Positions 4,604-8,537 of a DNA stretch of 64,000 nt are shown here, in pieces. The stretch is from assembly GCF_053078305.1 (NCBI RefSeq), contig NZ_CP166879.1; one strand, 5' to 3'. The position numbers were made by a program, and so were the translations under genes. The notes under the pieces are model-generated. The model saw only the letters and a list, made by a program, of their open reading frames with translations, did not search any database and was not told where the DNA came from. Every line of letters starts with the position of its first letter. The first letter of the stretch is position 1.

Positions 4604-5164
4604 ATGCTGATTGGCTATATACGCGTATCAACAAATGACCAGAACACAGGTTTACAAAGAAATGCGCTGGAATGTGCAGGATGTAAGCTGATTTTTGAAG
4701 ATAAAATGAGCGGAAAAACAACGCAGCGGCCGGGACTGAAGCGGGCACTGAAGAAACTAAAACCCGGTGACACGCTGATGGTCTGGAAACTGGACAGGCT
4801 GGGGCGCAGTATGCGCCACCTTGTTGCGCTGACAGATGAATTACAGCAACAGGGGATAAATTTTCGTAGTCTTACTGACAACATTGATACGTCAACCCCC
4901 ATGGGGCGCTTCTTTTTTCACATAATGGGTGCGCTGGCAGAAATGGAGCGTGAATTGATTGTCGAACGGACACGGGCTGGTCTTGCAGCTGCCCGTGAAA
5001 GGGGACGAACCGGTGGCAGACCCCGTCGTCTCACGCAGGAACAATACGAGCAGGTCGGGCGTTTACTGGCCGGGGGTGTCAGCCGAAGACAGGTGGCACT
5101 TATTTTTGATATCGGCCTTTCAACCCTTTATCGTTATTATCCTGCAAGCATTTCGGAAAAATAA
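4604..5164 (+). CDS. DNA invertase, serine recombinase of the Gin/Pin/Cin/Hin family
   Basis: 186 aa; N-terminal MLIGYIRVSTNDQ catalytic-serine motif; strong similarity to Mu Gin / e14 Pin as recalled; adjacent to the invertible segment. Confidence 0.9.
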   Translation: MLIGYIRVSTNDQNTGLQRNALECAGCKLIFEDKMSGKTTQRPGLKRALKKLKPGDTLMVWKLDRLGRSMRHLVALTDELQQQGINFRSLTDNIDTSTPMGRFFFHIMGALAEMERELIVERTRAGLAAARERGRTGGRPRRLTQEQYEQVGRLLAGGVSRRQVALIFDIGLSTLYRYYPASISEK

Positions 5165-5254
5165 GACGCTCCCTTTGTTGGGCCTTTACTGAATTAACGC
5201 AAAATGGCGTTTATCGGTCTGTGGATATGATAATTCTGTTTATTCAGGAACAGG

Positions 5255-7312
5255 ATGAATATTATGACGTCCAAATGGGTTCAACTATCATCAATGCCCG
5301 GAAACTTTACCGTTAAAGTTTCCGGTGGTACAGCGGCATTTCTTGAGGCTCCTTTTCCTCCGGCTGAAACGAAAGGAGGAATGACATTTGCTGACTGTCT
5401 CATCAGTTTTAATACACAGGATTGCCTGTGGGTAAGGCCAGTATCCGGTGATCCGAACGTGGAAATTACCGGAGCGGGTATTGGTGCTGTCATTCCGTTA
5501 AGTGCTGATGTTGCCGGTACTACTGAACCGTCAGACTGGGATAATGCTGAAACACATACCCGTCCGGCAGGAAATGAAACGGCTTCCAGCTCCCCTTCCT
5601 GGTATTACGTGATTGTTATAGCCGGTCAGTCCAATGCTTCATCTTATGGTGAAGGGTTGCCCCTGCCGGATTCTTATGATCGTCCTGATCCACGTATTAT
5701 GCAGCTGGCACGCAGGAATACACAAACCCCCGGAGGTATTCCCTGCAAATACAATGAAATCATTCCAGCAGATCACTGCCTTCATGATGTTCAGAATATG
5801 AGTCTGCTGAACCATCCAAAAGCAGACCTGAAAAAAGGGCAGTATGGTTGTGTGGGTCAGGGACTTCATATTGCGAAAAAAGTATTACCGGTGATTCCTG
5901 CTGATGCCGGGATTTTACTGGTTCCCTGTGCCCGTGGCGGCTCTGCTTTTACAACCGGCGCAGTTGGCTCATTCGATCCGGCAAGTGGTGCAGCCGAGGC
6001 GTCACTACGCTGGGGAGTGGATACCCCACTGTATCAGGATCTTGTCAGTCGAACGAAAGCGGCACTTGAGGCGAATCCAAAGAATGTGCTGTTATCTGTC
6101 GTATGGATTCAGGGGGAAGGAGACCTTAAAGCGACCCCGGCCCAGCATGGTGCCCAGTTTACTGCGATGGTGAAAAAATTCCGTGCGGATCTTGGTGCTT
6201 TCTCCGGTCAGTGTATTGGTGGTTCATCAGACAGTGTGCCGTGGTTATGTGGTGACACAACCTATGACTGGAAAGAGAAGAACCCGGCGGCATATGAAAC
6301 CATTTATAGCGGATATAAAAACCGGGCTTCCGAGAACATTCACTTTGTTCCACTGATGCACGATGAGTTCGGTAATAAAACCGCGACCAACCTGCCGGAG
6401 CACGACCCGGATATCGCTTCTGCCGGGTATTATGGTGCGGAATCACGGGGAGATGGCAACTGGACAACAGCATCCAGGGCAACCCATTTTAGCTCCTGGG
6501 CGCGCCGTTTTCTGGTCTCAGATCGTTTTGCATCAGCAATTCTTAAATATGCAGGTCTGACCTCTGCATTTATTGCCGGTGTGGCCCCTGATGGTGAAGC
6601 CCTGCCTCAGCCCGCGCCGGGTGGAAAACCGGAAGCTCCGACAGGTAGTCAGCCAGGAAGCAGTGAGTCCCCCCAGCCGACATCCCCGTCACTCCGTACG
6701 CTGCTTTCACTTAAAGCATCAGCAGGGGAAGCCCCGGCTCAGGGATGGAAAATTACAGATGGTACAATCCAGCTGACGGACGAAGGTAAAGCGCTGACCG
6801 TATCCAAACAAAGCGGAAAAACCTGGTCACTTACCCATGCGACCAGTGCTGCCGGAGAGCTGTTGCAGCATGGTGGTCAGTTGACCTGTAAATTCCGTCT
6901 GTCAGGTGAAGTAAAAGAAGGCCAGTTTGCTCTGGGTATTTACCTCCACACCGATACGGTCCCGGAAGGTGTAACCATGAGTGGTACAGGCACACCGTTC
7001 CTGATGGCGTATTATCTCCAGACAACAGGCGGCCAGTTAAATCTGATGCACCATAAAACAGGGGGGAATACGAAACTGGGATCATTTGGAGCCTACAATA
7101 ACCAGTGGCATACACTTGTCCTGAAGTTTACGGCGGGAAGTGCCCAGGTAACGCCTGTGCTGGATGGCACTCCGGGCCAGGCATTCCAGATGGTGAAAGA
7201 TGCACTTTCCCCTGCCAAAGATACGCTGACACTGACAGATGTCACCAAAGGGGCAACTTATGGCGTGTCTTTTGAGAGCGTTGTCCTTGAGGTTAATACC
7301 CCTGCGGCATAA
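5255..7312 (+). CDS. Prophage NanS-like sialate O-acetylesterase (SGNH/SASA hydrolase core with N- and C-terminal extra domains)
   Basis: 685 aa; core YYVIVIAGQSNASSYGEGLPLPD...CGDTTYDWKE resembles E. coli NanS (YjhS) as recalled. Confidence 0.75.
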   Translation: MNIMTSKWVQLSSMPGNFTVKVSGGTAAFLEAPFPPAETKGGMTFADCLISFNTQDCLWVRPVSGDPNVEITGAGIGAVIPLSADVAGTTEPSDWDNAETHTRPAGNETASSSPSWYYVIVIAGQSNASSYGEGLPLPDSYDRPDPRIMQLARRNTQTPGGIPCKYNEIIPADHCLHDVQNMSLLNHPKADLKKGQYGCVGQGLHIAKKVLPVIPADAGILLVPCARGGSAFTTGAVGSFDPASGAAEASLRWGVDTPLYQDLVSRTKAALEANPKNVLLSVVWIQGEGDLKATPAQHGAQFTAMVKKFRADLGAFSGQCIGGSSDSVPWLCGDTTYDWKEKNPAAYETIYSGYKNRASENIHFVPLMHDEFGNKTATNLPEHDPDIASAGYYGAESRGDGNWTTASRATHFSSWARRFLVSDRFASAILKYAGLTSAFIAGVAPDGEALPQPAPGGKPEAPTGSQPGSSESPQPTSPSLRTLLSLKASAGEAPAQGWKITDGTIQLTDEGKALTVSKQSGKTWSLTHATSAAGELLQHGGQLTCKFRLSGEVKEGQFALGIYLHTDTVPEGVTMSGTGTPFLMAYYLQTTGGQLNLMHHKTGGNTKLGSFGAYNNQWHTLVLKFTAGSAQVTPVLDGTPGQAFQMVKDALSPAKDTLTLTDVTKGATYGVSFESVVLEVNTPAA

Positions 7313-7369
7313 TCGTGACGGCCGGGAATTTATCCGGCTGTAACATCAGTTAATAAGAGTGAGGCTTAT

Positions 7370-7549
7370 ATGACATATATAAACGTCTGCCTGCTGTATT
7401 TCTGCACGGTGGTTTGTTGTCTGTTGCTTGTCAGCGGTGGTTATAAAATTATTCGCAATTATTTTCGAAATAAAATTGATGCAGCTGCCGAGGAAAAGAT
7501 AAAAAGCGGTGCTGTAATGCCGCAGCCGAAAGACTCCGGTCAGATTTAA
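7370..7549 (+). CDS. Hypothetical small membrane protein (59 aa, one predicted TM helix, Cys-rich)
   Basis: ATG with GAGTGAGG SD; hydrophobic N-terminus INVCLLYFCTVVCCLLLVSGG; below ORF-track cutoff, found by manual translation. Confidence 0.35.
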   Translation: MTYINVCLLYFCTVVCCLLLVSGGYKIIRNYFRNKIDAAAEEKIKSGAVMPQPKDSGQI

Positions 7550-7584
7550 TTTTTTGTGAACCAGAAAAGGAAAGGAGAATATTC

Positions 7585-7830
7585 ATGCCAGAGATTAAAG
7601 GCACGGTTACTGAAGAGCTTGTCAAACAGGCACTTTATTCTGAAGAAGTGAACCGCGTGCTGAAGGCGCAGGTTCGCAAGGATTTTGAGGCACAAATCGA
7701 CGCATATGTTGATGAAGTGCTGGCCCGAATGGTTGGCCATTCTCCGGCTGAAAACAGCACGGAGAATGAGCCTCAGCCCGTAGAGCAACCAGAGCCGGTT
7801 CAGCCCGGAACTGACAGTGCCATGATGTAA
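7585..7830 (+). CDS. Hypothetical acidic protein (81 aa)
   Basis: Strong SD AAAGGAAAGGAG upstream of ATG; followed by a hairpin terminator. Confidence 0.45.
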   Translation: MPEIKGTVTEELVKQALYSEEVNRVLKAQVRKDFEAQIDAYVDEVLARMVGHSPAENSTENEPQPVEQPEPVQPGTDSAMM

Positions 7831-7836
7831 CAATAC

Positions 7837-7869
7837 AAACCGACAGCTTCTCCTGTCGGTTTGATTTTC
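7837..7869 (+). terminator. Rho-independent terminator
   Basis: AAACCGACAG-CTTCTC-CTGTCGGTTT followed by a T-run. Confidence 0.55.
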
Positions 7870-7904
7870 ATGGGCGATGTATATACCAGTCAGAGGAAAT
7901 AATC

Positions 7905-8105
7905 ATGGACAAGAACAAAAAGCAGCCCGATACCAAAGGTCTGGAAATATTAAGCGCAGAAATTATCAATGCGCTACGTTCAGGACTTGATGAAAATACA
8001 TTACAGGATCGAAACTTCACCACTGCAATGTGGATAGCGATGCAGATCCTGTGTACCCCAAGATGCGCTATTTTTGCGGTTCGTGAGGGTCAGTTGACTC
8101 GCTGA
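7905..8105 (+). CDS. Hypothetical protein (66 aa)
   Basis: ATG with GAGGA SD; no recognisable family. Confidence 0.35.
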   Translation: MDKNKKQPDTKGLEILSAEIINALRSGLDENTLQDRNFTTAMWIAMQILCTPRCAIFAVREGQLTR

Positions 8106-8274
8106 TTGCCCGAATTACATCAGAAAAGCACGCGTTCCATAATTGCATAGCTGATGAATCACCAGCTGTATGAAAAGAGGTAAAGACACAACTGGTGGAT
8201 GTCATTGCTGCAATTGTGATATCAGCTGCAATTCGCGCAGCCTGTAACTTTTGGTCGGTGGTCAGTTTATCCAT
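8068..8274 (-). CDS. Hypothetical protein (68 aa), convergent and 3'-overlapping the 7905..8105 ORF
   Basis: Minus-strand ORF; second ATG has AGGAG SD; only one of the two overlapping ORFs may be real. Confidence 0.25.
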   Translation of the reverse strand: MDKLTTDQKLQAARIAADITIAAMTSTSCVFTSFHTAGDSSAMQLWNACFSDVIRAISESTDPHEPQK

Positions 8275-8352
8275 TTTCTCCTGCCTGAACAGATGCATCT
8301 CTGCTTTACAGGAGGCCGGGGAATATCATAGGATACACCACGAGCTCAGAGT

Positions 8353-8508
8353 GAAGCATTGATGCAGTTTTTTACAGATTGACCCAGAATAGTTCGCGCT
8401 ATCTGAGTCGCCATTTATGTAGTCCCGAAGTAAAGCATTGATGCAAACTTGTCTAAATCGGCCCAGCATAGTTCCAGCTATGCTGGGTTTCCCTTTTATG
8501 TAGTATCC
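8353..8508. repeat. Two imperfect tandem repeats of about 75 bp, the second with a 10-bp-stem hairpin and T-rich tail
   Basis: Shared AAGCATTGATGCA ... CCCAG-ATAGTT ... TTTATGTAGT; hairpin CCCAGCATAG/CTATGCTGGG at 8462..8487. Confidence 0.5.
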
Positions 8509-8537
8509 TGTTGATTTGAAACATACTACATATACGC

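Follow-up and report, generated by a model that had tools for sequence, protein, structure and literature searches.

Four small genes at the right end of a Mu-like Escherichia coli prophage: a nanS-p-linked DUF1378/DUF826 pair and a rare convergent gene pair

Results

Two cargo modules lie between gin and com-mom

The DNA analyzed here, referred to as the window, is a 64,000-nucleotide stretch of contig NZ_CP166879.1 (RefSeq assembly GCF_053078305.1). It is E. coli chromosome, with the trp leader, RtT and rdlD present, and its first 9.7 kb are occupied by the right end of a Mu-like prophage. The subject of this work is a group of four small open reading frames (ORFs) in that prophage end: ORF1 (7370-7549, plus strand, 59 aa), ORF2 (7585-7830, plus strand, 81 aa), ORF3 (7905-8105, plus strand, 66 aa) and ORF4 (8068-8274, minus strand, 68 aa). 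The positions and strands of all four were verified in the ORF list. An earlier sequence-only reading of this DNA had grouped them as a single islet of unassigned prophage cargo genes. The four ORFs are two unrelated and independent cargo modules separated by a hairpin terminator, T1 (7836-7863). ORF1 and ORF2 are the last two genes of a cassette that begins with a nanS-p-type sialate O-acetylesterase gene, and ORF3 and ORF4 are a convergent pair in a variable slot.

The cargo is bounded on the left by a Gin-type invertase gene (4604-5164; PHROGs match and annotation in relatives) and on the right by the plus-strand genes com (8761-8961) and mom (8915-9652), identified by matches to phrog_13819/6417 and phrog_1384 and by the annotations of relatives. 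As in phage Mu, the genes run in the order gin, com, mom, and the com and mom reading frames overlap. The spacing is different. Only 94 bp separate gin from com in Mu, compared with ~3.6 kb (5165-8760) here; the latter therefore represents cargo, as had been proposed. The four-ORF stretch makes up the right-hand third of this interval. Its GC content is 0.43-0.475 compared with 0.49-0.57 to the left, so the earlier description as AT-rich is correct in direction but the dip is mild. The chromosomal location of relatives with the same right end varies widely, which fits a phage that transposes. One complete relative is a 39-kb prophage that has Mu-type transposase, Mor, lysis, head and tail genes together with the same right end.

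ORF1 and ORF2 close a nanS-p cassette

The first gene of the cassette (5255-7312, plus strand) encodes a 685-aa nanS-p-type esterase with SASA and DUF6645 domains. Its product matches phrog_143 (E = 1.5e-273), the gene is called a DUF6645 protein in relatives, and its homologues give Pfam matches to SASA and DUF6645. The esterase is ~50-60% identical to the yjhS/NanS-p proteins of Shiga toxin (Stx) phages, and the N-terminal roughly 70-108 residues differ between the two. ORF1 and ORF2 follow on the same strand after gaps of 57 and 35 nt.

ORF1 is a DUF1378 small membrane protein. It matches PF07125 with E = 1e-23 and 83.7 bits over model positions 1-48 of 59, and phrog_494 with E = 4e-29. The peptide had been described as Cys-rich with a single transmembrane segment, and it does contain 4 Cys and one hydrophobic segment (Kyte-Doolittle 19-residue maximum of 2.46 from residue 4). 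After this N-terminal segment come the SGGY motif and the basic tail of the protein. When ORF1 is aligned with Mu-type and lambdoid family members, the LYFC...SGGY...R..R..I..A.EK motif is seen to be conserved, and ORF1 has the hallmarks of DUF1378: a length of ~60 aa, an N-terminal hydrophobic segment and the LYFC...SGGY...R..R motif. ORF2 is a DUF826 acidic soluble protein that matches PF05696 with E = 3.2e-15 over model positions 1-52 of 75, leaving a low-complexity C-terminal tail unmatched, and phrog_311 with E = 9e-30. Its ~50 N-terminal residues are conserved, its tail is rich in Pro and Glu, and the Met at the C-terminus is conserved as well. The acidity, strong Shine-Dalgarno sequence and terminator attributed to it correspond to a pI of 4.36, an AGGAG ahead of the start codon and the T1 hairpin. 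RefSeq labels the counterparts of ORF1 and ORF2 in related prophages DUF1378 and DUF826, so "unassigned" remains apt for their function and not for their family. The ratio of non-synonymous to synonymous polymorphism (pN/pS) among related prophages is 0.17-0.28 in frame for ORF1 versus about 1-2 out of frame, and 0.24 in frame for ORF2 versus 1.6-3.9 out of frame.

T1 has an 11-bp stem with 6 GC pairs and a T-run, is detected on both strands and folds with -17 kcal/mol (z = -4.3). It closes the cassette and forms the left-hand boundary of the variable slot. A terminator scan placed no terminator-like site between nanS-p and ORF1 and listed weak sites inside ORF1 (7391-7412) and ORF2 (7617-7631). 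The arrangement gives indirect support to nanS-p, ORF1 and ORF2 being one putative operon that ends at T1.

The linkage was assessed in 80 IMG/VR loci retrieved with the DUF1378 profile and by record counts. A nanS-p gene lies upstream in 79/80 loci and DUF826 lies downstream in 79/80; the two loci without one of the cassette genes look cut at the contig end. About 60 of these loci have a lambdoid backbone (Q or S-R flanks) and 19 are Mu-like (gin and com-mom flanks). NanS-p occurs in 347 records of the phage collection and DUF1378 in 309. Lambdoid Stx phages have the order Q-stx-nanS-p-DUF1378-DUF826-S-R, seen in VT2-Sakai and PhiR12_4. The position of the two DUF ORFs between nanS-p and S is mentioned in passing in a published survey (PMC10462455). 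The lambdoid Stx-type and Mu-like backbones, which are unrelated, both preserve the order of the three genes. ORF1 and ORF2 had been suggested to be a toxin/antitoxin-like pair; they are the fixed tail of the nanS-p cassette across the 80 loci, and ORF3/ORF4 are the better candidate for an interacting pair.

Comparison with the nanS-p block that lies between stx and the S-R-Rz lysis genes in Stx phages (933W, VT2-Sakai and similar) shows the same gene order, orientation, protein families and conserved motifs. The window copy differs in that it lies between gin and com-mom rather than in the Q-dependent late operon before the holin gene and has its own terminator. The sequences have also drifted far apart: compared with an esterase identity of ~50-60%, the small proteins of the Mu-type and lambdoid versions share 42-55% amino acid identity, and DNA similarity is undetectable. 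This degree of divergence argues that the cassette linkage is old and not the result of recent block transfer. Within the Mu-like group the cassette is a mosaic in which identity to the relatives L001 and L002 shifts gene by gene (related loci are numbered with the prefix L). Homologous exchange occurs inside the cassette, yet gene order is unbroken. ORF1 and ORF2 are thus catalogued DUF families in a known cassette, found here in an unusual phage backbone.

A paper on the prophage small RNA svsR proved unrelated because the svsR RNA is located in cI. A genuine DUF1378-DUF826 fusion, as implied by phrog_8301 and VT2-Sakai orf43 (L006:4047-4466, 139 aa), was rejected because the N-terminal part of orf43 is another frame read over the DUF1378 gene. 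The C-terminal 80 residues of orf43 are DUF826; its start is probably wrongly placed, and phrog_8301 likewise looks like a start-site error. Literature searches on nanS-p together with Mu-like phages, and on the locus tags that the two DUF genes have in O157, returned nothing usable.

ORF3 and ORF4 are convergent, overlapping genes

ORF3 and ORF4 are convergent and share 38 nt at their 3' ends, confirming the overlap reported previously. ORF4 is 68 aa long, or 76 aa if translated from an upstream ATG at 8298, and an AGGAGA lies 2 nt ahead of its ATG. Comparison of ORF3 with L005 gives 11 synonymous and 3 non-synonymous changes, a ratio of 0.08, and its variable sites are distributed 3/1/10 by codon position (10/14 at the third position, p = 0.004). 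In six alleles of ORF4, the variable sites outside the overlap are distributed 2/4/14 (14/20 third, p = 0.0009). The ORF4 frame is the sole open frame there, and the plus-strand frame that shares its third positions contains a stop codon. The pairwise pN/pS of ORF4 against L005 alone is an ambiguous 0.38. Judged by these substitution patterns, ORF3 and ORF4 are both protein-coding. The conservation analysis thereby agrees with the view of all four ORFs as genuine genes and not decayed DNA, each of them carrying a signature of in-frame purifying selection. The PGAP view of ORF4 as the C-terminal piece of a long frameshifted minus-strand gene was rejected because the upstream 106-aa part has no coding signature and its relative frame varies.

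AlphaFold2 predicts a three-helix ORF3 (predicted local distance difference test score of 72) and a helical hairpin for ORF4 (score of 65), both at low to moderate confidence. The Kyte-Doolittle maxima of 1.53 for ORF3 and 1.23 for ORF4 are both under the usual transmembrane threshold of ~1.6.

ORF4 has been lost in three ways: by a W46* mutation in L001, by a 5' deletion in L008, L009, L027 and L103 (and probably L121), and by an ATG to ATA change in L122. ORF3 carries C50* in L124 and L125, where ORF4 is intact. A clean asymmetry, with the toxin lost and the antitoxin kept, was considered and rejected because of this ORF3 truncation beside an intact ORF4.

The pair occupies a variable slot between T1 and com

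ORF3 and ORF4 lie on a swappable 425-bp segment (7868-8292) that is replaced by other inserts in sister prophages. Homology to the sister prophages stops right after T1 (7867/7868) and resumes at 8293. The segment is present in 16/5,426 complete E. coli genomes as two alleles ~7% apart. L002, L003 and most relatives have 190 bp in place of the 425 bp, with a leftward 56-aa CxxC...CxxC zinc-ribbon ORF (MDKEPVCPACKTPLQ...; L002:6557-6746 and equivalents) that is open in every locus, in one lineage via a new start codon. A third class carries a leftward 97-100-aa ORF (MDNHVTTRNRK...), and a fourth keeps ORF3 and has a deletion from ~8164 to 8630. In L008 and L009, which carry a methyltransferase gene in place of mom, the deletion is flanked by the short repeat AATCACC. 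The 97-aa ORF has no match in Pfam or PADLOC; the zinc-ribbon ORF has none in PADLOC and only sub-threshold zinc-ribbon hints in Pfam. The slot is a hotspot for small leftward genes, divergent from com-mom.

Morons are independently transcribed accessory genes between conserved phage genes, often with promoter and terminator flanks. ORF3/ORF4 resemble them in lying between two terminator-like hairpins, in the variation of slot content among sister prophages, in the orientation of ORF4 against the flanking phage genes and in a GC content slightly below that of the neighbors. They differ in having no assignable promoter and in comprising two convergent protein genes with overlapping 3' ends instead of one gene.

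The pair geometry recurs in distant loci

When 1.8 billion cluster representatives were scanned in full with HMMER, only two remote ORF3 relatives were recovered, P0040 and P0041, which share the ORF3 motif F..AMW(I/L)AMQ..C.P..A. Their genes are on contigs with Mu-like phage genes, between a gp27-like DUF1804 gene and a ~550-aa gene. The ~550-aa gene precedes a Mu-type portal gene in L099, and we take it to be a putative large terminase gene. The ORF3 homologue of L098 faces an 88-aa gene in convergent orientation with a 26-nt overlap, and the N-terminus of this partner is identical to ORF4 at 12/18 residues (E = 4e-7). A metagenome scan added L123, with an ORF3 homologue and an ORF4-like gene that converge and again overlap by 26 nt; L098 and L123 both carry Mu-like phage genes. 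The ORF4-like partners in L098 and L123 retain the conserved N- and C-terminal helices. The ORF3 proteins of the different lineages are 30-35% identical overall, with P0040 reaching 43% over its 51 best-matching residues. The recurrence of the pair geometry despite this low identity suggests that ORF3 and ORF4 form a functional unit, and the convergent overlapping arrangement in three lineages is the main evidence for it. The comparison of synteny in related prophages proposed along with the sequence-only reading thus yielded both the cassette order across 80 loci and the ORF3/ORF4-type pairs of L098 and L123.

The gene facing the ORF3 homologue in L099 is instead of the DUF4145 family (L099:5259-6116, minus strand) and has a weak match to the PD-T7-4 defense model (E = 6e-6). 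The interval between gp27 and the putative large terminase gene in this other Mu-like prophage may be a second cargo hotspot.

Searching one genome per species with the ORF3 profile returned no relatives, and searching IMG/VR with the ORF3 and ORF4 profiles returned close E. coli relatives only. ORF3/ORF4 are a rare, uncatalogued pair.

Profile and structure searches of the four ORFs

NCBIfam and PADLOC gave nothing for any of the small ORFs. Pfam had no match for ORF3 or ORF4, and PHROGs had only sub-threshold matches to families of unknown function. Searches of PDB sequences with profiles of all four families returned nothing below E = 0.09, and the AlphaFold2 models of ORF3 and ORF4 had no meaningful Foldseek match in PDB. 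Among the PADLOC-DB 2.0 defense models, the four ORFs, the zinc-ribbon ORF and the 97-aa slot ORF were unmatched, and only the DUF4145 neighbor in L099 gave a hit, a weak one. An Rfam scan of 7200-8800 yielded nothing real. The PHROGs and NCBIfam scans agree with the previous statement that none of the four resembles structural or lysis proteins. The conjecture of a toxin/antitoxin, exclusion or anti-defense arrangement found no backing, as no toxin, antitoxin, exclusion, defense or anti-defense family matched any of the four. The sensitive hidden Markov model (HMM) and structure searches recommended earlier placed ORF1 and ORF2 in DUF families and uncovered remote ORF3/ORF4 relatives, but did not provide a function.

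Repeats, hairpin T2 and a probably spurious ORF upstream of com

The DNA between the slot and com (8293-8760) contains a tandem duplication with a ~79-bp unit on the plus strand (8350-8504), whose copies at 8350-8423 and 8429-8504 are 75% identical. Each copy consists of a GCATTGATGC palindrome and a hairpin. The unit is single-copy in L005, L003 and L010. The second hairpin, T2 (8460-8489), is a strong plus-strand terminator-like site with a 13-bp stem followed by TTTCCCTTTT, and it folds with -21 kcal/mol (z = -5.3). Its stem is perfect or near-perfect with differing sequences, CCCAGCATAG/CTATGCTGGG in the window and GTCCAGATAG/CTATCTGGAC in L010. The persistence of pairing with different stem sequences across loci suggests that selection maintains T2 as a structure, whether as terminator or as binding site.

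A 106-aa minus-strand ORF (8326-8646; phrog_26524) extends over the repeats, T2 and a GATC cluster, and PGAP calls it a pseudogene with a frameshift. Its pN/pS is 0.69 in frame versus 0.46 and 0.30 out of frame. The C-termini and lengths of its counterparts vary between loci (65-154 aa), as does its frame relative to the downstream zinc-ribbon ORF. Given no coding signature, variable C-termini and lengths, and a shifting frame, the 106-aa ORF and its PHROG are probably not a gene and instead a database artifact over regulatory DNA.

A perfect 10-bp inverted repeat, TATGTAGTAT-N16-ATACTACATA, is located at 8497-8532, and the GATC cluster lies upstream of com (8540-8720). By analogy with Mu, we take the repeat and the GATC cluster to be probably the Dam/OxyR/C control region of mom.

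Other features of the prophage end and its surroundings

In some relatives (L008:4424-5630 and L009:4424-5630), the gene after com encodes a DNA cytosine methyltransferase instead of Mom. Two contigs of IMG genome 2617271340 (L100 and L101) encode right-end proteins that are all 100% identical to those of the window by tblastn; judging from these matches, that genome seems to hold two copies of the Mu-like prophage of the window. The prophage ends shortly beyond mom. The adjoining 423-aa minus-strand ORF (9759-11030) resembles a host gene interrupted by the prophage insertion and may be yciQ of the trp neighborhood. Two copies of the antitoxin RNA rdlD, of the ldr/rdl type I toxin-antitoxin family, are found on the minus strand at 62346-62411 and 62881-62946 and are ordinary E. 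coli chromosomal features.

Discussion

The account that best explains the locus overall is one of two modules, in which the DUF1378/DUF826 pair works with NanS-p and ORF3/ORF4 are an effector/antidote unit. We give this combined account about an even chance of being correct.

ORF4 opposes the flanking genes, ORF3 follows them, and their 3' ends are mutually antisense. For these reasons we tentatively favor an effector (ORF4) and antidote (ORF3) relationship of the toxin-antitoxin or prophage-exclusion type. ORF4 would probably be a leftward moron expressed alone. ORF3, which is in the late-gene direction, would counteract ORF4 either by acting as its protein partner or through antisense or convergent transcription over the shared 3' ends, where at minimum the two transcripts would be complementary. 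The toxin/antitoxin idea stays applicable to ORF3/ORF4 only. The hydrophobic ORF1 lacks an antisense partner and is carried along with nanS-p.

ORF3/ORF4 resemble toxin-antitoxin systems in being two very small adjacent genes on a mobile element, either of which can be lost, and differ in that ORF3 is truncated in one lineage that retains ORF4. Type II systems are normally co-directional operons whereas ORF3/ORF4 are convergent, and the co-directional ORF1 and ORF2 belong to an esterase cassette. Known toxin or antitoxin families and folds were found neither in Pfam, PHROGs, PADLOC or the PDB sequences nor by Foldseek, for which the best E was 9.8. Toxins of type I systems are hydrophobic membrane peptides that are countered by an RNA, whereas ORF4 is non-hydrophobic and ORF3 is conserved as a protein; no Rfam family matched in 7200-8800. 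Type I loci with complementary convergent transcripts include par/fst and txpA/RatA, and the ORF3 and ORF4 transcripts would likewise be complementary over at least 38 nt.

Several points weigh against the combined account. The remote ORF3/ORF4 pairs come from two short contigs with one copy each. For none of the four ORFs did Pfam, PHROGs, NCBIfam, PADLOC or PDB sequences return a homologue of known function, and the Foldseek comparison of AlphaFold2 models for ORF3 and ORF4 found none either; the models themselves have low to moderate confidence. A promoter scan did not find a convincing sigma-70 promoter ahead of ORF3 or ORF4. The decay of the pair lacks the clean asymmetry expected of a lethal toxin, and the natural knock-outs show a mixed pattern that does not settle the effector/antidote idea. 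On the side of the cassette, the link between the DUF genes and nanS-p could be passive, as a short cassette may move as a block, although the gene-by-gene identity shifts against L001 and L002 show that recombination breakpoints do fall within it.

The competing explanation with the most in its favor, though still doubtful, is that ORF3 and ORF4 do not interact, being either unrelated morons that happen to abut or, in the case of ORF4, a by-product antisense to the ORF3 3' untranslated region. Retention of ORF3 without an intact ORF4 in several lineages, the quite different convergent gene beside the ORF3 homologue in L099 and the ambiguous pairwise pN/pS of ORF4 are all consistent with it. 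A by-product would not be expected to show the third-position bias seen across six ORF4 alleles in the only open frame there, and unrelated neighbors would not be expected to face each other with a 3' overlap in both L098 and L123 when the ORF3 proteins have diverged so far. A bolder version of the effector/antidote reading, with ORF3/ORF4 as an undescribed Mu-like module in which ORF4 would act in the lysogen as an effector of exclusion, defense or toxicity and ORF3 as the off-switch in the lytic phase, by its protein, by convergent transcription over the shared 3' ends or by both, and with DUF1378 and DUF826 as dedicated controllers of the place or time of NanS-p action, is improbable.

DUF1378 and DUF826 may act with NanS-p and not with the lysis genes. 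This tentative assignment follows from the survival of the nanS-p link in the Mu backbone, where the lysis genes are far off, and from the observation that the pair is never beside a holin gene without nanS-p among the 80 loci, bar one contig apparently cut at its end. In the complete 39-kb prophage, the lysozyme and LysC genes are ~25 kb from the DUF1378/DUF826 pair. The basic cytoplasmic tail of DUF1378 and the acidity of DUF826 suggest, as a conjecture, that the two could work jointly at the inner membrane, the membrane-anchored basic tail engaging the acidic partner. It is unlikely that they are instead accessory lysis genes, that is, holin or lysis-timing modulators whose Mu-like copy arose by block transfer and has no tie to the esterase. 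Such a role would fit the lambdoid loci, where DUF826 directly adjoins the holin gene S, and the size and single transmembrane segment of DUF1378, which are typical of small lysis-related membrane proteins. In the 19 Mu-like loci, however, the pair remains with nanS-p at a distance from the lysis genes. ORF1 and ORF2 match no holin or lysis family in Pfam or PHROGs, and the lambdoid and Mu-type versions are too diverged for a recent block transfer.

That the stretch is decayed non-coding DNA with ORFs arising by chance is a very improbable reading, for which one can cite the neighboring 106-aa ORF as just such a chance case and the rarity and occasional breakage of ORF3/ORF4, and which, going by the frame-specific purifying selection in all four ORFs, the strong HMM matches of ORF1 and ORF2 and the retention of the remote ORF3/ORF4 homologues as a pair, can be considered already refuted for ORF1 to ORF4.

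The stretch is ordinary prophage accessory DNA, unsurprising to a phage specialist, that offers two leads. It also calls for an annotation clean-up of the 106-aa "frameshifted hypothetical protein" with its PHROG and of the VT2-Sakai orf43 start. NanS-p esterases allow Shiga-toxin-producing E. coli to use O-acetylated sialic acids from mucin (PMC8065619). The presence of DUF1378 and DUF826 behind nanS-p in both lambdoid and Mu-like phages is a reason to study the two small proteins with the esterase. ORF3/ORF4, compact and easy to clone, are a candidate new accessory unit of prophages.

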